Source: a virus. From it: a stretch of 31,759 nucleotides of DNA. The position numbers and the translations under genes were made by a program. Numbering within the stretch: the first letter of the stretch is position 1; each line of letters starts with the position of its first letter. Below the pieces are notes generated by a model. The model searched no databases, was not told the origin of the DNA, and saw only the letters and a list, made by a program, of their open reading frames with translations. The stretch lies in the UHGV virus genome UHGV-0134350; one strand, 5' to 3'. Of this stretch, positions 6,416 through 29,080 are shown in pieces.

Positions 6416-6492
6416 CCGGTTAACTCCGTGGTTAGTGGGCAAGTGTTATTGTCCTGGCTGGTCTGTTGAGGGGCTATTTGTCAGTGTTGGGC

Positions 6493-6515
6493 GATGTCTG
6501 ACACATTGAGACATC
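6493..6515. promoter_or_regulatory. imperfect dyad upstream of FI, candidate late-activator (Ogr/B-type) site
   Basis: gatgtct-N9-agacatc contains TGT-N13-ACA, centred about 90 bp upstream of the FI start; the P2 late-promoter consensus is TGT-N12-ACA. Confidence 0.3.
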
Positions 6516-6552
6516 AGCAACGGATGCGGGAAATTTTTTGTATAGCGTTGAG

Positions 6553-6755
6553 ATACCCGAGGCGATCCAGTTTCCAGACCACAAGCGTATCGCCCTCTGA
6601 CAAGGTTCTGAGTAACCTCTTTAGCCCGGCCAGTCTGATGTTTTGCCGCTGATTTTATCTTCGAAAATCAGCTCACATCCTGCGCACTCCAGTTCATTTC
6701 GCTGTAATGCGGTGTTCTGGTCATTTGTTGATACACGTACATAACCGATAAACAT
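6553..6755 (-). pseudogene. serine DNA invertase (Gin/Hin/Cin/Pin family) remnant, frameshifted and 3'-truncated
   Basis: Minus-strand translation gives MFIGYVRVSTNDQNTALQRNELECAGCELIFEDKISGKTSDWPG then a stop; a second frame continues with LKRLLRTLSEGDTLVVWKLDRLG, after which similarity ends. About 67 of roughly 190 aa remain. Confidence 0.75.
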
Positions 6756-6809
6756 GAGAAATAACCCGGTAAAAAGTCGGGAGCATGCCAGCTGAACGGA
6801 ATATCTGCG

Positions 6810-6835
6810 TTTTCTAAAAGGTTGGTTTGGGAGAA
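6810..6835. repeat. left 26-bp hix/gix-like inversion crossover site
   Basis: TTTTCTAAAAGG-TT-GGTTTGGGAGAA; the inner half plus core (6822-6836) is a perfect inverted copy of 8757-8771; the outer half lacks the conserved AAACC. Confidence 0.65.
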
Positions 6836-7360
6836 GGTTCGGCATTACCCGTTGGCGTGCCTGTTCCGTGGCCTTCCGCCACTCCGCCAACAGGCTGGCT
6901 GAAATGCAACGGTGCCGCTTTTTCTGCTGAAGAATACCCGGAACTGGCAAAGGCTTATCCGACAAATAAATTGCCTGATTTACGTGGTGAGTTTATTCGT
7001 GGCTGGGATGACGGGCGTGGTGTGGATGCGGGACGTGCCTTGCTAAGTCTTCAGGATGACTCTTTTGAAGCGCACAGGCATGAGTCCTTTTTTTACGCGG
7101 GTATTTCTCGCAATGAAATACCATTAAAAAATCTTCCAAGTTCAGACGAGATGCTGACTTTAAGTTCTACAACTAATGCCTTGTCCCCGGACGGTATTGA
7201 TGCCACTAATTCGTTAATTGGTAATGATGATTACAACTGTCTGATTGAAGGAAATAAAAATAACAAACGAACAGCGACGGGGTTGAGTACCAGTATTGTC
7301 GGTGCAGCAGAGACACGCCCACGTAATATTTCATTTAATTACATTGTGAGGGCTGCATGA
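6827..7360 (+). CDS. alternative tail-fibre C-terminal segment (Hv'), silent in this orientation
   Basis: Frame opens inside the crossover site (LGEGSALPVGVPVPWPS...), has no ATG of its own, and carries a phage tail-collar-like motif; inversion would fuse it to the constant part of H. Confidence 0.7.
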   Translation: MGEGSALPVGVPVPWPSATPPTGWLKCNGAAFSAEEYPELAKAYPTNKLPDLRGEFIRGWDDGRGVDAGRALLSLQDDSFEAHRHESFFYAGISRNEIPLKNLPSSDEMLTLSSTTNALSPDGIDATNSLIGNDDYNCLIEGNKNNKRTATGLSTSIVGAAETRPRNISFNYIVRAA

Positions 7361-7962
7361 TGTATAACGCCATCTTGAATAGTAAATTTATTGCCACAAA
7401 GGCAGGAGAGATTACCGTTTATAACTATGACAGTGAGACACGGGAGTATATTTCTGCATCAACTGAATATCTTGCTGTGGGTGTCGGTATCCCTGCATAT
7501 TCCTGTTTAGATGCTCCTGGCACACATAAGGCTGGTTATGCAATCTGCCGTTCGGCAGATTTAAACTCATGGGAATATGTGTCAGACCATCGCGGTGAAA
7601 TCATCTATAGCACCGAAACAGGAGAATCGAAAGAAATCACAGCTCCGGGTGATTATCCTGAAAATACAACCACTATCGCCCCGTTAACGCCATACGATGA
7701 ATGGGATGGTGAGAAATGGGTAACAGATACTGTGGCACAGCATAGCGCCGCAGTAGGCGCGGCAGAAGCACAGCGTCAGTCACTGATTGATACTGCAATG
7801 GCTTCCATTAGTCTGATTCAGCTGAAATTGCAGGCCGGACGGAATCTGACGCAGGCAGAAACCGCCCGACTTAACGCTGCGCTGGATTACATTGACGCGG
7901 TGACGGCAACAGATACCAGCACCGCGCCGGATGTCATCTGGCCTGAACTGCCGGAGGCGTAG
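7357..7962 (+). CDS. tail fibre assembly protein (alternative, tfa')
   Basis: 201-aa ORF with typical Tfa C-terminus ...TSTAPDVIWPELPEA; ATG overlaps the Hv' stop. Confidence 0.8.
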   Translation: MMYNAILNSKFIATKAGEITVYNYDSETREYISASTEYLAVGVGIPAYSCLDAPGTHKAGYAICRSADLNSWEYVSDHRGEIIYSTETGESKEITAPGDYPENTTTIAPLTPYDEWDGEKWVTDTVAQHSAAVGAAEAQRQSLIDTAMASISLIQLKLQAGRNLTQAETARLNAALDYIDAVTATDTSTAPDVIWPELPEA

Positions 7963-8377
7963 GCCATTCAATATCTGGCGCACCGGAAGTATCGACCAGT
8001 TCCAGTGCGTCCAGATAATCCAGCCACAAATTATATTGCGCCAGTTCATCATCTTTCAGACGACCAATAGCGGCTTTACCGGGCCATTGCTTACTGTTCA
8101 TGTATTCGTTGGCCTGGTTAATTAGTAGCTGTCTTTCTGATTCAGTAATTTCAATAAGTTCTTCATGCGTGGGTGGAGGAATATCTGCCCACGCAGGCAG
8201 CCCATCATCTCCGGCAATACGGATTTTTCCTTGTGGCGGTTCAGCCATAAACTCACTGATAATATTTTGATTTACTTCCTTAGCGTCTGATAAATCCCAT
8301 CCCTCTGATTTATATTTATCAATCATATCCACAGGGAAAAAAGCATTATGCCTTGCGCTATAAACATATTCGTTCAT
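7934..8377 (-). CDS. tail fibre assembly protein (currently expressed orientation)
   Basis: Tfa-like C-terminus ...DTSGAPDIEWPTPP; start taken at ATG (MNEYVY) preceded by GGTGA; the track start at 8386 is GTG. Confidence 0.8.
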   Translation of the reverse strand: MNEYVYSARHNAFFPVDMIDKYKSEGWDLSDAKEVNQNIISEFMAEPPQGKIRIAGDDGLPAWADIPPPTHEELIEITESERQLLINQANEYMNSKQWPGKAAIGRLKDDELAQYNLWLDYLDALELVDTSGAPDIEWPTPPAVQAR

Positions 8378-8397
8378 ATAAATCACCCTGAATAAAA

Positions 8398-9378
8398 TTA
8401 CTCACCAACAGCCCACCAACTGTAATTCATCGATACCGTGTCGCTGGTTGATGACGTTCTGTAAGCAGAATTAAAGCCGGTTAACGTTGGGCCTTCTGCA
8501 GTCATCACGAACCCTCGCCCAGCGCCTAAAGGCGCACCGCCATCACCAGAATGAGTAAGCATGGCGCAGTCCGCTTTTTTGGGGAAAGGGATGCTGAATG
8601 TAATTCTCATTGTTTGCGTCGATAATGTCGGCGTAACCGCACCACGACCATATTGCAGGATTTTCCCGTTGGGTAATTTCATCCATCCATCACCACTGGC
8701 AAAAGAGGTCATGTCCGGTATCTGATTTTCCCCTGTCCCCACATCCCGTTTTGCCGCTTCTCCCAAACCAAGGTTTTTAAGAACGTCGCCGGCCAGTCCC
8801 GCGTCAACCATTTCTTTCAGAGCATTAGCGATTAACGGGTACTGCTTGTGTGGATTGGCGGCCTCAACATGTTTTTTCATCAGGTCATCAGCATATCCTT
8901 TCACCTCGATAATCTTGCCGTCGACATACTGGCGCGTTGCCAGCACGACTGCCGGGTCGATTTTCAGGGTGATTGCCGATGTGCTCGACACAATCAGAAT
9001 CATGCGAATGGTCTGCGTGCGACCGCTTCCCTCCTGCAGTTGTGGCTTGTAGGTCTCCGGACAGTTCGCCACGGCAATCAGAATACCATCATCGTCATAG
9101 AGACCAATCTCGCGGATCCAGAAACCACCTTCATTCTCGGGAATAATCTGTTCCGCGATAATCTGACTGGTATTGGCCGGGTCAACGGTCAGCAGGTTCA
9201 GCGGCGCGATGCGTTTCTGGTTAATGAGCTTCGTCTGCGCCGTATCAGGGGTCGGCAACGTACCATTCGCATCACCGACGGCCATCTGCGTCAGGTTGAG
9301 TTTGGTACCGAGTGCCGCCGCGTTCGCCAGCCGCGCCGCGCCCTGATTGGTCAGAATGGCAAAATATTTTGCGGTCAT
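8398..9378 (-). CDS. H: tail fibre protein gpH (constant N-terminal part about 8771-9378, variable C-terminal part 8398-8770)
   Basis: N-terminus is P2 H-like (...GGFWIREIGLYDDDGILIAVAN...SGRTQTIRMILIVSS); the constant/variable junction LG|LGE lies on the crossover site. Confidence 0.9.
   Translation of the reverse strand: MTAKYFAILTNQGAARLANAAALGTKLNLTQMAVGDANGTLPTPDTAQTKLINQKRIAPLNLLTVDPANTSQIIAEQIIPENEGGFWIREIGLYDDDGILIAVANCPETYKPQLQEGSGRTQTIRMILIVSSTSAITLKIDPAVVLATRQYVDGKIIEVKGYADDLMKKHVEAANPHKQYPLIANALKEMVDAGLAGDVLKNLGLGEAAKRDVGTGENQIPDMTSFASGDGWMKLPNGKILQYGRGAVTPTLSTQTMRITFSIPFPKKADCAMLTHSGDGGAPLGAGRGFVMTAEGPTLTGFNSAYRTSSTSDTVSMNYSWWAVGE
8758..8783. repeat. right 26-bp hix/gix-like inversion crossover site (inside H)
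   Basis: Coding orientation TTCTTAAAAACC-TT-GGTTTGGGAGAA; both half-sites match the invertase half-site pattern TTCTnnnAAACC. Confidence 0.7.
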
Positions 9379-9983
9379 GCGTTCACTCTCAGGTTATCAA
9401 TCAAATGGATGGCCGAGGCCGGGTAATATTCACCGCCGACGACAATCTCCTCGGGGGTGTAGGGGTAAACAGTCAGCGCGTCGCCGTGATAGCATCCCGC
9501 GCCGACATACAGTTCGCCGGTCGAGCTCAGACTGATAGCCAGCCCGGTCAGGTGGCGACTTGCCGGTTTGGCGTCTTCAATCAGGCGCTCAAGCTCCTGA
9601 TACATTTCGTCAGTAATGCCGCTATCGAGCACGCCGACAACGAGGCGGAATGTGCCTGGCTCCTCGTTGAGCTGCCACCACTCGCGCACTTCAATCAGAA
9701 AGCCGAGCGGCTCAACCACCCGACGCAATGCGCTGATGGTGCCTTTGTGCTGATGGACGAAAAACGAGGACGCGCAGACGCTACGCTTTGTCGCCTCCGG
9801 CCATTTCTCATCCCACCTGTCGACCGACAGCGCCCAGGCCAGATACGGCAGCAGTTTTACCGGGCAGGTGCGCCAGTTCCACAGAGTGCGCAGCGGTACC
9901 GGCACACGCTGAATCTCAGAGAGCGCGGCAGCGGCGGCAACCTCCAGCGGCGACGAGCCAACGGGTAATAGCCGGTCACTCAT
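9375..9983 (-). CDS. I: baseplate assembly protein gpI
   Basis: 202-aa ORF, P2 gpI-like, between J and H. Confidence 0.9.
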   Translation of the reverse strand: MSDRLLPVGSSPLEVAAAAALSEIQRVPVPLRTLWNWRTCPVKLLPYLAWALSVDRWDEKWPEATKRSVCASSFFVHQHKGTISALRRVVEPLGFLIEVREWWQLNEEPGTFRLVVGVLDSGITDEMYQELERLIEDAKPASRHLTGLAISLSSTGELYVGAGCYHGDALTVYPYTPEEIVVGGEYYPASAIHLIDNLRVNA

Positions 9984-20690: not shown

Positions 20691-20720
20691 TCACCACTCT
20701 AGCCGCCAGCATGGCGGCTC

Positions 20721-21446
20721 TCAATCGTGAGTGGATATTTGCGAAACAAACTCTTTAACTCCATCTCGTTCAAGTATTTTACTGTCATGGATATACTTTA
20801 CGATATCCCACTCGTAGTATGTACAAGCCATTGCAACTAAAGATATTATTTTTATGTCAGTTAAGTTAACTAATGTTTCATAATAATCTTCCCGTTCAAC
20901 CCCGCAATTATCTATCAACTTCACAATCAAATAAAAGCGACGCACCACTGAAAAAATGCAATCATTAGCATCCACTTCACTTAACCACTTTGTTATTACC
21001 TCTTTTTTTACCTTGGCTTTAACTAAAATTACAATATTATCTTCAAGATAAGTTACGGCTGCACCACTTGTAAATTCTTCGACCACCCCGTCAGTTTGTC
21101 CATCAATATCACCAACTTGAACACAAAACCTTTCAAAGTTAGAATCCTGACATTCAACCAAATGGAAAAATCTCACTTCAAATTTTTTATACTCTTCTAA
21201 AGATTCTTGCCTTTTTACTTCATCGATCAGGCTGGAATTAGCCTCCCTTTGAAGTTTTATTGAATTTATAAGGAGGTAAATTGTAATAAATGAAAGTATA
21301 GGGTTGACGACACCACCCAAATAATCACCAAACTGCGCCCAAACATCAGTCTTGCTGGATAAATGTCCGTTTACTCCGAAGTTGAAGTAATACAAGGCGC
21401 ACACAGCTACAATCACGCCAGCCGAAGACAGCAACACCTTTCTCAT
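20721..21446 (-). CDS. cargo protein with two N-terminal transmembrane helices (candidate membrane effector)
   Basis: 241-aa ORF in markedly AT-rich DNA; hydrophobic helices VLLSSAGVIVAVCALYYF and LGGVVNPILSFITIYLLI; ATG overlaps the stop of the upstream gene (ATGA). Confidence 0.75.
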   Translation of the reverse strand: MRKVLLSSAGVIVAVCALYYFNFGVNGHLSSKTDVWAQFGDYLGGVVNPILSFITIYLLINSIKLQREANSSLIDEVKRQESLEEYKKFEVRFFHLVECQDSNFERFCVQVGDIDGQTDGVVEEFTSGAAVTYLEDNIVILVKAKVKKEVITKWLSEVDANDCIFSVVRRFYLIVKLIDNCGVEREDYYETLVNLTDIKIISLVAMACTYYEWDIVKYIHDSKILERDGVKEFVSQISTHD

Positions 21447-22261
21447 ACAGTTTCAACCATACGGATTAGATATTTCACCACATCACCACTTTTTACTACA
21501 ACTTTGCTAACAGTAAGTTTTAGATATGTGTAGTTATCTTGCCTGCCATTATTATTGTGTAAATTTAATGAGACCAATCTTTTTTGAGCGGCGGGTATAG
21601 CCTTTAAAGGCATGTAAAAACCAAAGGCTACTGTATCATCTTCACCTTCGATAACTAACCTACCATTTCCAGTTCTCGCATTAAATCGAGTAATAACTGC
21701 GTTAATATTAACTTGACCGGGCTTTATTTTTGATTGTGTCAAGTTTGTAGCAGTCATTGTGTCTAACTTTGCTATTCTTTGTTTTCCAGCAGGTTTTTTA
21801 TAGTTAAGTTCAACATCAAAGTTTTTTTGAAGATTTATCCTATGCATCCTTACCAAAGGTTGTCTGATACGATCAATAAGTTCATCTTCAATTTCCTCAA
21901 GCTCCTCAATAATTCCTGCAGCTTTTGGAGATAGCTCCTTAGTTTCCAGATATAGAGATTCAGAAATAAAATACCCCATGACTTCCGAGAACACAGAACG
22001 GGTCATTTTTTTTAATTCGGCAGCTAATTCCGGCTCATTAACAATCAAGTCGAAGTTTTGACCATAAGAACTTTTAAAGCTTTGTTTGAGAACCGCTCGC
22101 GCAGGGTTAACATGAGTGCGGCGCTTAATAATTTTTTTTCTGAGTATTGCCTCTGCTAGTATGCATGTCACCTCAGCCGTTCCAGAGAGGGTATCAAGGC
22201 CATACTCCATATCAACTTCTTGATCACCACTTTTGATGACAACGTCATAGCTAACTTTCAT
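21443..22261 (-). CDS. cargo protein of unknown function (candidate sensor partner)
   Basis: 272 aa from the ATG (MKVSYDVV...) preceded by AAGGA; the track start is a GTG two codons upstream; AT-rich; no motif I recognise. Confidence 0.75.
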   Translation of the reverse strand: MKVSYDVVIKSGDQEVDMEYGLDTLSGTAEVTCILAEAILRKKIIKRRTHVNPARAVLKQSFKSSYGQNFDLIVNEPELAAELKKMTRSVFSEVMGYFISESLYLETKELSPKAAGIIEELEEIEDELIDRIRQPLVRMHRINLQKNFDVELNYKKPAGKQRIAKLDTMTATNLTQSKIKPGQVNINAVITRFNARTGNGRLVIEGEDDTVAFGFYMPLKAIPAAQKRLVSLNLHNNNGRQDNYTYLKLTVSKVVVKSGDVVKYLIRMVETV

Positions 22262-22369
22262 CGGCACATCCTTGATTTAGTAACCTTTGGTTATTATTTT
22301 TCATCTTCTACTCATTGACACCGATTTTTTACACCAAAAATATCAAATTGCAAGTGTGTGCTGCGCGCA

Positions 22370-22388
22370 ATGCTTTCCCCGCCACGCC
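22370..22388. other. cos site (19-nt cohesive end, 186/P2 type)
   Basis: Reverse complement of 22370-22388 is GGCGTGGCGGGGAAAGCAT, matching the P2 cohesive end GGCGAGGCGGGGAAAGCAC (recalled from memory) at 17 of 19 positions. Confidence 0.7.
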
Positions 22389-22545
22389 TGCCCGCTTTAC
22401 GGGGCGGTTTTAATGCAGTTGCATGAACACTCGGGATCCGCGCCAGCTCTGGCGGCGCACGGTCAGAACGGGCAACCCCTGCGAATGCAAAAGCATGCAC
22501 CTGTTGCATGCACGGCTAAAAACGGGGAAATCGCGGAAAAATGGC

Positions 22546-22573
22546 ATAAAAAACCGGCATTCACGGTGCCGGT
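22546..22573 (-). terminator. rho-independent terminator ending the leftward early/tum transcript before cos
   Basis: Stem ACCGGCA / TGCCGGT with 7-nt loop, followed on the minus strand by TTTTTTAT. Confidence 0.6.
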
Positions 22574-22902
22574 TTGGGGCTGGTTTTGTCGCGATTACTG
22601 GGCGTGTAATGCGCCAATAACACTATTGAGGCACATGCTGGCAAAAATCAGCAGAAAAATCGTCGTCCACCGATTTTCATAAACGAGAGATAACATATTG
22701 ATATAGATCCTTTTATTTGTGCATTCTAATGTGGTTTAACAGGTGTTTGATAACGACCGTAAGCTCATCTTTACTGGCTTGCTCGACCATTTTTTCGGTG
22801 TAGCTTTCCACCTCACGAGAACTCAGGTCGTTATTTGAAGCCATTACGGTCAGCTTTTTTGCCCAATCGGCAAACGGGTCTATCGATGAAAGGGAATTAT
22901 GC

Positions 22903-23334
22903 ATGTCCAAAAACCTCGAATTATTTAACCAGCAGACGGCGGAAATTTTTGCGGTGTTATGGGATAACTTCCCGGTGCCGCAGGTCATCACCTACGAAAA
23001 ATTTAACGCCGTGCTACCTGATGACTACTTTGACCAACTTAACTCACCGGAAATGAAAGCACTGAATCAGTTGCGTAGTGTGGTTGAGGGTACATTCACT
23101 TTTCTCAGTGAAAACGGCTACATCCAATATGAAACAGACCATCAGACTTATTTTCGGGATGTGCGCCTGACCGAGAAAGCACTCGCCGTGCTCAACAAAA
23201 AGCCCGAGGCACTCGGCGGTAGTGAAACGATGGGCGATAAGATTATCAGTGCGGTGAAAGACGGGACACCCGGAGTTATTGCAGGTGCGGTGACAAACCT
23301 GCTTTCACTCGGTGTCAATCTGGTAACCAACTAA
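22903..23334 (+). CDS. hypothetical protein with hydrophobic Gly-rich C-terminal tail
   Basis: 143-aa ORF with AGGGA 7 nt upstream of the ATG; convergent with the dinI-like gene; sits where old/tin lie in P2. Confidence 0.55.
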   Translation: MSKNLELFNQQTAEIFAVLWDNFPVPQVITYEKFNAVLPDDYFDQLNSPEMKALNQLRSVVEGTFTFLSENGYIQYETDHQTYFRDVRLTEKALAVLNKKPEALGGSETMGDKIISAVKDGTPGVIAGAVTNLLSLGVNLVTN

Positions 23335-23401
23335 CGCCTCGCGTGGCTCGTTGTTCAACCCCGTCAGCACTGAAAGCAAGTTTCAGCACCGGCGGCGTTT
23401 G

Positions 23402-23635
23402 TTAATGCAGCCAGCTATCGTCCTCCCATACCTGCTGCATGATTTCCATTACTCGTTTTTTATCTTCGTCCAGTTTCAAACCGCTTAGTTCAACGCCATT
23501 AGCGGAGCCCTTGCGAATTCGGATAGCAGTCTTTGGGTAAATAGGTTGAAGATTGCGGTACAGTTCAGCCTCAAGTGCATCCAATGTTGCCTGACTAATT
23601 TTTTGCTCTTTATCCAACGTGATATTGATTCTCAT
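23402..23635 (-). CDS. dinI: DinI-family protein (Tum C-terminal-like)
   Basis: 77-aa ORF MRINITLDK...DALEAEL...EDKKRVMEIMQQVWEDDSW aligns along its length with E. coli DinI. Confidence 0.85.
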   Translation of the reverse strand: MRINITLDKEQKISQATLDALEAELYRNLQPIYPKTAIRIRKGSANGVELSGLKLDEDKKRVMEIMQQVWEDDSWLH

Positions 23636-23638
23636 AAT

Positions 23639-23821
23639 CTAATCAGCCTTATAAAAATTATCATCTTCGGTTTCGTTATTTTCGCTGTTTGCTAGGTCTG
23701 CAATGAGAGTGAGCGCGAGCTTTAAGTCTGATGGCTTGCAGTTTGCAATCAGAGATACCTCGGCAATAAATTGCACACAAGCCCACTTTTGCTGCGTTCG
23801 GCTGAAATGTTCGCCAACCAT
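23639..23821 (-). CDS. small protein, possible Tum N-terminal (antirepressor) part
   Basis: 60-aa ORF with GGAGG RBS, downstream of the LexA box; in frame with the dinI-like ORF and separated from it by a single TAG. Confidence 0.5.
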   Translation of the reverse strand: MVGEHFSRTQQKWACVQFIAEVSLIANCKPSDLKLALTLIADLANSENNETEDDNFYKAD

Positions 23822-23840
23822 GAAATCCCTCCCATAGGGT

Positions 23841-23860
23841 TACTGTATGTTTATACAGTA
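23841..23860. promoter_or_regulatory. LexA (SOS) box
   Basis: TACTGTATGTTTATACAGTA fits CTGT-N8-ACAG and lies about 20 bp upstream of the 60-aa ORF. Confidence 0.75.
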
Positions 23861-23934
23861 GCACGTATTGGCAAAAGATGGGAAGAAAAAAAACGAATAG
23901 AGCGATTGCTGTATGTGCATGATATGGATATGAA

Positions 23935-26157
23935 TTACTCATGTATTGGTTTTGATTCTTCAGCCATCGCCGCAACACGATTAAGGATTTTCCGAGCTTT
24001 AGCCTCATGCGATGGTGCTGCGGAAAATATTTCTCCTTTGGCCGTTCCGCGTAGCCATTTACCATCAAAACAACTTTTACCACCGGCCATCAGGTGCAGG
24101 GCTTCGCCCCGGCTGATATTAATGCCGGTTGTCAGATGTATCTCATCGATAGTTTTAGCTATAGCTGCGTTTTGCTCATCCGTTCCGTGGATGAATTTTC
24201 GCCGTGCTGCTGGCTTTTGCTTCCTGAGTCGGTTGGTCAATTCTCGTCTTTCACGCCGACTCAGTGGTTTTGTTAAATCCAGTATCGGTGGATCGCTTTC
24301 GCTTCCCGTACAGTTATTGACAGAACTCCGAGGGACGGCTTTGCCGTCCTGAAGGTCAACGGCCAAATCAACAGCACGCTTCGGAACAATCTTCCACTGA
24401 GTGAGCCGGGTTAAAATCGGGCTTCCTGCACCTATGGAGGAATCGTAGACCCCCTTAATACATACCGTTTCCTCACCGTACTGATTAAGCTCGGTACGCG
24501 GTTCATACAGTGTGCGCACCTGTAAATCATCGCGACGGACAAACGGCCCACCCTGAGCATTAACATAACCAGCCCAGTCACCAGCGTCGGCGGCATCATG
24601 GACGGCGGCAAACTCAACGCTCAGACCGTGCGCGGTTTCGGTATCAGCGAGGCGACGCAACTCACGGTAAACCGTCACCGGCGCACCACCAATAAACTGA
24701 AACTGACGGATGTGCCAGCGCGCAGCCCATGCTGAAACGGCGGGGGCTGTCTCTTTCAGCAGCTCACCGCTTTCATCATCGGTTTCACCATCGAGAGCAT
24801 AACCGTCGATATTTTTTGAAATGTATTTAGCAACATAGCCGGTTGCGCTGCCTTTCTCCGGGTCAATGGACTCCGCGTGGAAACGTGCTTTTTGGGATTT
24901 ATCGCTTTTCAGTTCGTGGCGGTCTTCTTTCCATGCGTATTTACGGACGATGGAGCGAACATATTCAACATCTTCCGGCAGCATGAACATCAGCATGTGC
25001 CAGTGTGGAGTGCCGTCGTGATGGGGCTCGGCGACACGAATACCGAAAATACGGACATCTTCCCGATGTAGTTTGGCACGGATACGCGCCCAGATACCGG
25101 TTAGATAGTTTTGCGTGTCAGCCGGGCTGGCACCGCTCCATTTGCTGTTACGGTAACCGGCTTTAGTCGTGGCGTGATATTTTGACGGCGCGGTTAGAGT
25201 GTAAAACTCACCGACATAACCGAGCTCATTACAGATGTTTTCAAACCCACGAATGCGGGTCATGAGCTCACAGCGGCGAATCGCAGGGTTAGCAACTGAG
25301 CCATCATATTTTTCAATTAGGCTGATACGGTTGCCGTCTTCGTCTTCGAGATCCAGACCTTTGAGAAATTCACGAGTGCGGCGCTTTTGTTCACGCCAGT
25401 CAGTCACGCAGTTTTTACTCGCGTAAGTGTTTTTTTTCTTACTGACGTTGCCGACTGCAATTTGCAGGTGTTCGCGCCACGTAGCTGCTACACGGCGCAA
25501 ACGACCGCGCCACCACCCATCGTTAAACATTTTGGCGATAGCCGGTGCGATTTCATCCGCACCGACATATTTTTTTTCAACCCGCTCCCAATGTGGTGGG
25601 ATAACGTTGAATTGGAGGGAAATAAAGCCAGCACGAATATACCAGGTGTACAGCGTTTTAAGCTCGCCGAATCCGTGGTCATTAATGTTGGCAAGTTCAC
25701 CACGAATGAAATTAGCAATATCAGCGGCCAACAGGTCAACATCAGCGCGCGACATGTCCGGGAGACGGTTATATCGGGCGACCATATTAACCATGCGTGA
25801 CGACAGATATTGCATTTGCTGAGTATCAAAATGACTTCCAAAAACAGCGGTTGATACCTTGCTGTTGATACCAGCGCATTCGTATTTTTTTGCGACCAGT
25901 TCAAGACGCGGCAATGCCTTTTTGCAGAAGCTGATTAAAAATGCATTGGCTCGTTGACTACCCTGATTTTGTTCCAGCACCGCAGCAGTGCGATAAACAT
26001 CTAACCGCACGCAGTCGGGCTGGAGAGAAAGCACCTTTTTTGCATGCAGCAAAGCCGCGAACATACGGTCGCGGCGATGCTGTTGCTCATAAGTAAGGTA
26101 TGGGCTGGAGATTGCCGACCGTGGGACGTTCCACGGATAAGCGAATTGAACAGCCAA
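23935..26157 (-). CDS. A: replication initiation endonuclease gpA (rolling-circle initiator)
   Basis: 740-aa ORF, P2 A-like, contains the active-site region YVAKYISK. Confidence 0.9.
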   Translation of the reverse strand: MAVQFAYPWNVPRSAISSPYLTYEQQHRRDRMFAALLHAKKVLSLQPDCVRLDVYRTAAVLEQNQGSQRANAFLISFCKKALPRLELVAKKYECAGINSKVSTAVFGSHFDTQQMQYLSSRMVNMVARYNRLPDMSRADVDLLAADIANFIRGELANINDHGFGELKTLYTWYIRAGFISLQFNVIPPHWERVEKKYVGADEIAPAIAKMFNDGWWRGRLRRVAATWREHLQIAVGNVSKKKNTYASKNCVTDWREQKRRTREFLKGLDLEDEDGNRISLIEKYDGSVANPAIRRCELMTRIRGFENICNELGYVGEFYTLTAPSKYHATTKAGYRNSKWSGASPADTQNYLTGIWARIRAKLHREDVRIFGIRVAEPHHDGTPHWHMLMFMLPEDVEYVRSIVRKYAWKEDRHELKSDKSQKARFHAESIDPEKGSATGYVAKYISKNIDGYALDGETDDESGELLKETAPAVSAWAARWHIRQFQFIGGAPVTVYRELRRLADTETAHGLSVEFAAVHDAADAGDWAGYVNAQGGPFVRRDDLQVRTLYEPRTELNQYGEETVCIKGVYDSSIGAGSPILTRLTQWKIVPKRAVDLAVDLQDGKAVPRSSVNNCTGSESDPPILDLTKPLSRRERRELTNRLRKQKPAARRKFIHGTDEQNAAIAKTIDEIHLTTGINISRGEALHLMAGGKSCFDGKWLRGTAKGEIFSAAPSHEAKARKILNRVAAMAEESKPIHE

Positions 26158-28219: not shown

Positions 28220-29080
28220 ATGAGTTCTGAGCTTGATGTTCAGTGGCGTGTTAGTGCAACGAACGGCGTATTGGAACGCTTAATGTCAGCCTATGGGGTC
28301 AAGATGCAAAAGGATTTGGCTGACCTGCTAGGTATCGCTAAACACAGCGTTAGCGGCTGGGTTCAGCGTGATGCAATACCTGGCAATGTCATAGTTAGGT
28401 GTTGTCTTGACACGGGAGCTGATATCAATTGGCTTGTAAATGGAGAACTTGCAAATGCAAATCACGAGCGAGCCAGTTGCAAGTTAAAAGGCAAAGAGCT
28501 TTATGACGAGATTATGACGAATGGTGGTAAAACCGTTTTGCGTAGGATTCTTGATGCGTATGGCTTTACCATGCAAAAGGAGCTCGGTGATTTGCTCGGC
28601 ATTTCCTCTGGCACAATTAGCACATGGGTAAGGCGAGATTTTTTCCCTGGTGATGTTGTTGTTACATGCGCTCTTGATACCGATACGTCACTGGAATGGT
28701 TAGCAACAGGCAAGGGGCAAATGCGAGCTAACAGGGAAGATGTCACATCTGGTTTTTCTATTAAAAAATCTCGTCTTGAATCTGGTGAGCTTAAGGATGC
28801 AGGAACGTGGCATCCTGACCCCTCAATGATTCCTTCTAACTCAGGGGAATTGATTTTTGTTGACGGTGTAGCTGCCTCTTGGCTTGTCGACTGTTCTGCT
28901 TCGAATATAAGTAATGGTCGCTGGTTAATTGATATCGACGGCGCTCTTGATGTTTTTGATGTAATTCGCTTGCCCGGTGGAAAAGTCAGGTTGTCAAATA
29001 AGTCTGCTGAGTTTGAATGCAACATTACAGACATTACTCCTGCCGGGGCTGTAGTTTTCACATTGGAAAAACACGTGTAA
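28220..29080 (+). CDS. cI: CI-type immunity repressor (186 CI-like) with tandem duplicated N-terminal DNA-binding domain
   Basis: 286-aa ORF; two internally similar segments (aa about 18-77 and 96-163) of the phage CI repressor HTH type, then a CI C-terminal-like domain. Confidence 0.8.
   Translation: MSSELDVQWRVSATNGVLERLMSAYGVKMQKDLADLLGIAKHSVSGWVQRDAIPGNVIVRCCLDTGADINWLVNGELANANHERASCKLKGKELYDEIMTNGGKTVLRRILDAYGFTMQKELGDLLGISSGTISTWVRRDFFPGDVVVTCALDTDTSLEWLATGKGQMRANREDVTSGFSIKKSRLESGELKDAGTWHPDPSMIPSNSGELIFVDGVAASWLVDCSASNISNGRWLIDIDGALDVFDVIRLPGGKVRLSNKSAEFECNITDITPAGAVVFTLEKHV

Follow-up and report, generated by a model that had tools for sequence, protein, structure and literature searches.

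The virus genome UHGV-0134350 (31,759 nucleotides, one strand, hereafter the window) contains a 60-codon ORF that is followed, in the same reading frame, by an ORF for a DinI-family protein, with nothing but TAG and one codon between them. An earlier note on this DNA compared the pair with tum, the SOS-controlled antirepressor gene of phage 186, and offered two readings: a tum gene inactivated by an amber mutation, which could make the prophage SOS-non-inducible or suppressor-dependent, or an arrangement of two genes. The question is whether the TAG interrupts one gene or ends the first of two. The near-consensus LexA box, the 60-aa ORF, the TAG plus one codon and the in-frame DinI ORF described in that note were all found where it had placed them, on the minus strand. 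On the evidence below, the locus very probably forms, in a PSP3-like Escherichia coli prophage, an SOS operon of two intact genes, tumA and tumB, with the TAG as the normal end of tumA.

Position of the locus in the prophage

The window is an E. coli PSP3-like prophage (Eganvirus, 186 group of P2-like phages). It is colinear with Salmonella phage PSP3, in reverse orientation and at 87-92% identity, with two segments (6434-9540 and 20720-23329) that have no PSP3 counterpart. The tum region is 95.6% identical to that of PSP3 and 100% identical to several E. coli chromosomes, and it was matched in 81 of 5426 complete E. coli genomes. In the RefSeq annotation of the 100%-identical E. coli copies, two genes are given at the match ('DinI family protein' and 'hypothetical protein'). 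Two further genes that matter for the comparison with 186 are as follows.

23935..26157, minus strand: P2 A-type replication endonuclease ORF, from the ORF list, immediately upstream of the locus (context only)
28220..29080, plus strand: cI, 286-aa 186-type immunity repressor, from Pfam PF07022 and PF16452

The locus adjoins the P2-A-type replicase gene on its downstream side, which is the place of tum in 186, and the replicase gene is colinear with PSP3 gp36 and 186 A. The placement of a LexA-controlled, Tum-like locus in the tum position, as proposed earlier, is borne out by this neighbor and by the p95-like promoter described below. CI was matched by Phage_CI_repr (PF07022, two stretches, E 1e-52) and Phage_CI_C (PF16452), and cI is colinear with PSP3 cI, whose product is likewise 286 aa. 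By analogy with 186 Tum and CI, this repressor is the presumed target of TumA. As a side observation, the two PF07022 stretches stand ahead of the C-terminal domain, giving two helix-turn-helix stretches by Pfam.

Both segments without a PSP3 counterpart were inspected. The segment at 20720-23329 is bounded on one side by tumB and on the other by the portal-gene end of the region that matches PSP3, which is the cos side on the PSP3 map; the equivalent position in PSP3 is occupied by orf37/orf38, which are replaced in the window by unrelated cargo. Four ORFs were found there.

20721-21446, minus strand: ORF of 241 aa
21443-22267, minus strand: ORF of 274 aa
22713-22991, minus strand: ORF of 92 aa
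22903-23334, plus strand: ORF of 143 aa

These ORFs matched only PHROG families of unknown function (8999, 13337, 2454, and 2266), with no Pfam match and no convincing PADLOC match for any of the four. The segment occupies what we take to be a variable cargo position of P2-like phages, often the site of anti-phage systems, and may be an uncharacterized accessory or defense module. The segment at 6434-9540 is a tail-fiber region unlike that of PSP3, with the following features.

6624-6965, minus strand: ORF of which only the last ~39 residues match the N terminus of serine resolvases/invertases
6827-7357, plus strand: alternative fiber C-terminal ORF with a collar domain
7357-7959, plus strand: tail-fiber assembly gene, in opposite orientation to the second copy
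7937-8386, minus strand: tail-fiber assembly gene, in opposite orientation to the first copy

This region looks like a Cin/Gin-type invertible fiber segment with a truncated invertase.

Promoter and LexA box

The elements upstream of tumA are given below, all on the minus strand.

23879..23884, minus strand: -35 hexamer TTCCCA of a p95-like SOS promoter, by homology to the annotated 186 p95
23855..23863, minus strand: extended -10 TGcTACTGT, the -10 hexamer being nt 1-6 of the LexA box
23860..23841, minus strand: LexA (SOS) box TACTGTATAAACATACAGTA, a near-consensus 20-nt palindrome
23827..23833, minus strand: tumA ribosome-binding site GGGAGGG, read from the sequence

The promoter was assigned by alignment to 186 p95 as annotated in the 186 record; a generic sigma-70 scan of 22600-24100 called no site, the p95-like promoter included. 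The 60 nt 5' of tumA are nearly identical to the annotated p95 promoter, and the -35 hexamer aligns with the p95 -35 (TTCACA) column for column, with an 18-nt spacer to the -10. In 186, the p95 -10 at 29044-29049 likewise coincides with the start of the LexA site. The LexA box agrees with the consensus at 18 of 20 positions (two mismatches) and is the sole such site in the window, with 0 of 100 shuffles giving a match; it is also the sole CTGT-N8-ACAG in the window. Each of the 24 TumA loci has a box of this form, 19-24 nt 5' of its start codon, and such a box is present in the 186 and Fels-2-type loci too. Every TumA locus, 186 and the Fels-2 type share the whole layout, namely the -35, an 18-nt spacer, TACTGT within a 20-nt LexA box, the ribosome-binding site and the start codon. 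Judged by these elements, the promoter would be LexA-repressed, with the SOS box lying over the -10.

The asymmetric center of the box is inverted in the window relative to 186 (L002 1424-1443). Read in the tum direction, the 186 box is identical to TACTGTATGTTTATACAGTA, the plus strand of the box in the window, and several relatives have the center in one or the other orientation. The operator being palindromic, this inversion is probably without functional meaning.

The first gene, tumA

23821..23639, minus strand: tumA, predicted 60-aa antirepressor, with ATG at 23821 and TAG stop at 23641-23639

The ribosome-binding site ahead of this gene is GGAGG-like in the relatives as well. TumA is 98% identical to PSP3 TumA. 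It was assigned to phrog_1993 (E 1e-31), the same family that residues 1-61 of 186 Tum match (E 1e-22), and a TumA profile aligned with residues 14-45 of 186 Tum at E 3.4e-5 (hhalign). This link required profile methods, as a tblastn search with only TumA as the query found neither 186 Tum nor the Fels-2-type ORFs at E 1e-3. A protein-database search gave 208 clusters of TumA homologues, and among the best 120 of these the length is ~60 aa, with a few at 86-93 aa; several are named TumA in UniRef.

TumA core residues 14-44 (ACVQFIAEVSLIANCKPxDLKLALxLIADL) are almost invariant among the relatives. In the 31 codons of this core, 270 synonymous and 34 non-synonymous codon changes were counted, summed over the pairwise comparisons with the window, and tumA is under strong purifying selection. 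An AlphaFold2 prediction run with the database homologues gave a two-helix hairpin (residues 6-25 and 30-52) with a pLDDT of 69, which is moderate confidence; no solved structural relative of TumA was found.

The junction, tumB and the end of the operon

The TAG at 23641-23639 is followed by ATT and then, in the same frame, by the ATG of tumB at 23635. The features from the junction onward are as follows.

23647..23651, minus strand: TAAGG, a ribosome-binding-site-like motif within tumA (3' end) and 11 nt 5' of the tumB ATG
23635..23402, minus strand: tumB, 77-aa DinI-family protein, with TAA stop at 23404-23402
23391..23365, minus strand: 11-bp hairpin with no U-run, from RNA folding and the inverted repeat, just after tumB

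TumB was matched by the Pfam DinI family PF06183 at 84.3 bits (cutoff 24.2) over profile positions 2-63 of 63 and by phrog_189 at E 3e-30, and it is 99% identical to PSP3 TumB. It aligns with the C-terminal half of 186 Tum, starting exactly at the internal GTG annotated in 186. From its membership in the DinI family, TumB would be a modulator of RecA filaments and the SOS response.

The TAAGG motif is kept in the PSP3-type junctions, TATAAGGCTGA(T/A)TAG(A/T)TTATG, and relatives have GAGGTGA, AAGGA or AAGGAGG at this spot. As a ribosome-binding site for tumB the motif is weak and distant, so that the expression level of TumB is uncertain. Given the 3-nt gap, translation of tumB may be coupled to termination on tumA. 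Among the loci with a DinI-family gene, the in-frame relation, which has a one-in-three chance of arising at random, is kept only in the close PSP3 lineage.

The hairpin after tumB lies in a segment shared with PSP3, which extends down to position 23329 of the window. It was not called by the terminator scan, whose one listed site (23216..23204) is ~190 nt past tumB and not at its end; in 186, the equivalent of this hairpin may, tentatively, be the partial terminator t95a. A convergent ORF lies beyond the hairpin, so that the operon probably has no genes besides tumA and tumB.

The window, PSP3 and 186 are nearly the same over the first ~40 nt of the DinI-type gene (in tumB, 23595-23635; AATATCACGTTGGATAAAGA[G/C]CAAAAA), with diverged flanks. 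Locus L009 and a group of E. coli genomes (H115-H122) have a tumA that is 98-99% identical and the same TAG-ATT-ATG, joined to a different DinI-like half. The similarity of H115-H122 to the window ends ~40 nt into tumB, where the breakpoint lies, and the DinI-like half of L009 resembles, by eye, the C-terminal half of 186. The DinI half can be exchanged between lineages, and the conserved ~40-nt stretch looks like a recombination joint for swaps of the DinI module.

Conservation of the stop and alternative explanations

A further 22 loci with TumA relatives were collected from genome assemblies, and their junctions were analyzed. One locus (L029) was set aside for an internal stop, and 23 intact copies were counted. 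These have 52-100% identity and come from more than 10 genera (Escherichia, Citrobacter, Enterobacter, Yokenella, Kluyvera, Pluralibacter, Buttiauxella, Kosakonia, Phytobacter, Dryocola, Winslowiella, and Pantoea). All 23 intact TumA end at the homologous position, after 60-62 codons, on TAG in 15, TAA in 6 and TGA in 2. Within the available downstream sequence, a DinI-family gene follows tumA in 9 of the 23 loci and is absent from 14. Six of the nine are in frame with a 3-nt gap, and these six are all from the close PSP3 lineage (TumA identity of 95% or more); L022, L025 and L026, which make up the rest, are out of frame, with gaps of 2, 13 and 17 nt. Phages PSP3, SEN1, SW9, SI22 and Midge have the same junction as the window. 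Since the stop is kept in 23 of 23 copies and tumA is under purifying selection, the stop is the conserved end of an autonomous gene and not an amber mutation.

Two kinds of anomaly were seen in the collection. An enterobacterial-type tumA is present in a 'Bacillota bacterium' MAG (on a 1-kb contig) and in a 'Chryseobacterium sp.' assembly (loci L013 and L016), where it is likely the result of contamination or mis-binning. L029 (Franconibacter helveticus) has its internal stop after codon 37, at a contig end, and is probably a pseudogene or a sequencing error.

The amber-mutation reading, in which a 186-like tum was recently hit and the prophage became SOS-non-inducible or suppressor-dependent, draws on the in-frame ORFs parted only by TAG and one codon and on the read-through product, which aligns end to end with 186 Tum. 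This product would have 60+1+1+77 = 139 aa, near the 146 aa of 186 Tum and as long as the earlier note had estimated. Against a recent mutation, the stop is found in every intact homologue down to 52% identity and as three different codons, 14 loci lack any DinI half, the DinI gene is out of frame in three of the nine loci that have one, and the selection on tumA is strong. The phages named above share the junction, and one of them, PSP3, is UV-inducible through tum (PMC2771037). An 18-residue linker of 186 Tum is also absent here, so the difference from 186 is more than a single point mutation. We consider a tum pseudogene extremely improbable, and of the two readings first offered it is the arrangement of two genes that holds, in agreement with the PSP3 tumA/tumB annotation and with the published assignment of antirepressor activity to the upstream gene.

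An in-frame stop could also be leaky. Occasional read-through of the TAG, or its suppression in supE hosts, would add to the two separate proteins a small amount of a 139-aa TumA-TumB fusion having a distinct, 186-Tum-like function, and the fused architecture is functional in 186. The in-frame TAG-ATT-ATG is kept in 6 of 6 PSP3-type loci examined, but these six are one close lineage (at least 95% TumA identity) and do not count as independent evidence. Across the diverged relatives, an in-frame relation with a leaky stop is not kept: L022, L025, L026 and the Fels-2 type, the distant loci that bear a DinI gene, have it out of frame, and TAG, TAA and TGA all occur as the stop. We know of no structure or sequence context at this junction that would promote read-through. 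Because neither the frame nor the identity of the stop codon is kept in distant relatives, programmed or leaky read-through is rated as highly unlikely. The same small probability is given to the more specific proposal that, in the PSP3 lineage, a low level of read-through or amber suppression yields a fusion that couples antirepression to RecA filaments, as 186 Tum may do; if true, one locus would give three products.

The two proteins might instead associate non-covalently into a Tum-like antirepressor, with both needed for induction. The modules do form one polypeptide in 186, and where the genes are paired they are tightly linked, with gaps of 2-17 nt. Yet the LexA box and a conserved TumA are both retained in the 14 of 23 intact tumA loci for which the available downstream sequence shows no DinI gene, and TumB halves have been swapped (L009 and H115-H122) while TumA stays 98-99% identical. 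The literature also places the antirepressor activity of PSP3 in the upstream gene and reports that deletion of dinI in the Gifsy prophages left induction unaffected (PMC3121763). Such a split protein is regarded as very unlikely, and two separately acting products of an intact tumA-tumB operon remain the preferred explanation.

Proposed mode of action

By analogy with 186, PSP3 and the published systems, the tumA-tumB operon would act as follows. In the lysogen, LexA bound to the box overlapping the p95-type -10 would keep the operon off. DNA damage would activate RecA and lead to self-cleavage of LexA, and the operon would be transcribed. TumA, a 60-aa protein with two predicted helices, would bind the 186-type CI and reversibly block its operator binding, as suggested by 186 Tum and by the upstream gene of PSP3, and induction would proceed without cleavage of the repressor. 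TumB, whose translation would begin at a separate ATG, 3 nt past the tumA stop, would probably act on RecA filaments and tune the SOS signal, and would be dispensable for antirepression.

With this LexA-controlled antirepressor pathway, which is standard for the 186/PSP3 group and adds little that is new, the prophage should be SOS-inducible without repressor cleavage. TumA appears as an autonomous, highly conserved 60-aa module, preceded in every case by a p95-type promoter with a LexA box. The DinI module can be missing or exchanged, the fused form in 186 Tum being the exception. As split, fused and DinI-less forms occur naturally, comparing them could show what the DinI half adds to induction, a question already raised by Lemire et al. 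2011 (PMC3121763).

Comparison with known systems

TumB is like E. coli DinI (1GHH), with which it aligns over the full length (residues 1-77, E 2.6e-9). A LexA-controlled dinI homologue is also paired with a small antirepressor in the Gifsy prophages, where deletion of dinI was without effect on induction (PMC3121763). The Gifsy order is reversed, with dinI first, and the antirepressors GfoA/GftA are separate proteins (PMC3121763).

The Fels-2/SEN8/DuoHS type (STM2728 plus a DinI-family gene) shares with the window a LexA-boxed promoter, a small ORF of ~62 aa, a DinI-family gene and the position after the A gene. Its small ORF belongs to phrog_698, with weak cross-matches to phrog_1993, and would be a remote homologue of TumA. 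The two are only 15-19% identical and the TumA profile gave no significant hhalign match to the Fels-2-type small ORF, so that the link is weak. In Fels-2, SEN8, 500465-1 and ST437-OXA245phi4.1, the small ORF and its stop are followed after 10-11 nt by the DinI ATG, out of frame. In DuoHS, a P2-like prophage of E. coli HS, deletion of tum and lexA(Ind-) each abolish induction by mitomycin C (PMC12055606); these data support the pathway and not specifically the assignment of the short ORF.

Phage 186 is like the window in having an N-terminal phrog_1993 module, a C-terminal DinI module and a near-identical p95/LexA layout, and also in genomic position and in the 186-type CI as the partner. In an alignment with 186 Tum, the 60-aa ORF corresponds to the N-terminal half and the DinI ORF to the C-terminal half; the read-through translation aligns contiguously over query residues 16-137 at 36.6% identity (E 5e-23, tblastn). 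The earlier note had set against its reading the combination of a conserved stop, two independent ORFs and a 60-aa protein unrelated to the N terminus of Tum. The relatives do keep the stop and the ORFs are independent, but the 60-aa protein is related to the Tum N terminus (phrog_1993 and hhalign). 186 Tum differs in being one 146-aa polypeptide, in contrast to two proteins parted by a stop, with ~37-40% identity overall. One continuous ORF joining the antirepressor and DinI modules is absent from the window, where the TAG ends the first module. 186 Tum carries the extra 18-residue linker SVVFSAPPVGETFAKEGK, and the 186 operon has orf97 downstream, which the window lacks.

Within the 186 linker, a perfect ribosome-binding site, AAGGAGG, stands 6 nt before the internal GTG (L002 1650-1675), and this GTG aligns exactly with the tumB ATG. 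In the 186 record, it is the start of a 'truncated Tum' that 'modulates SOS induction'. The motif and the GTG are in keeping with a DinI half that is translated independently and with descent of 186 Tum from two genes. On the simplest reading, 186 Tum looks like a fusion of the two-gene module in which the former intergenic spacer is now the linker. Lemire et al. 2011 (PMC3121763) had already suggested that in 186 Tum an antirepressor is joined to DinI. According to Shearwin 1998, as cited in that paper (PMC3121763), 186 Tum binds CI and blocks its operator binding.

The closest known system is PSP3, in whose record (AY135486) the same ORFs have been annotated as tumA and tumB since 2002, TumA as 'similar to 5' end 186 tum; UV induction of prophage' and TumB as 'similar to dinI and 3' end of 186 tum'. 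PSP3 and the window agree in the ORF lengths (60 and 77 aa, 98-99% identity), the TAG-ATT-ATG junction, the LexA box and promoter (one box base different), the place after the A replicase gene and the type of CI (286 aa). They differ in host, the window being from E. coli, in the substitutions TumA I55N and TumB A31P, and downstream of tumB, where PSP3 has orf37/orf38 and the window its unrelated cargo. Lemire et al. 2011 (PMC3121763) described tum as split by a stop codon in PSP3 and Fels-2, with the antirepressor activity in the upstream gene; for PSP3, this assignment is quoted there second-hand as a personal communication, the primary paper being Bunny et al. 2002. Phages 186, PSP3, Fels-2 and SopEphi are listed as UV-inducible through tum (Lavigne et al. 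2009, PMC2771037). The arrangement in the window is the already-described tumA/tumB form, of which PSP3 carries a near-identical copy.
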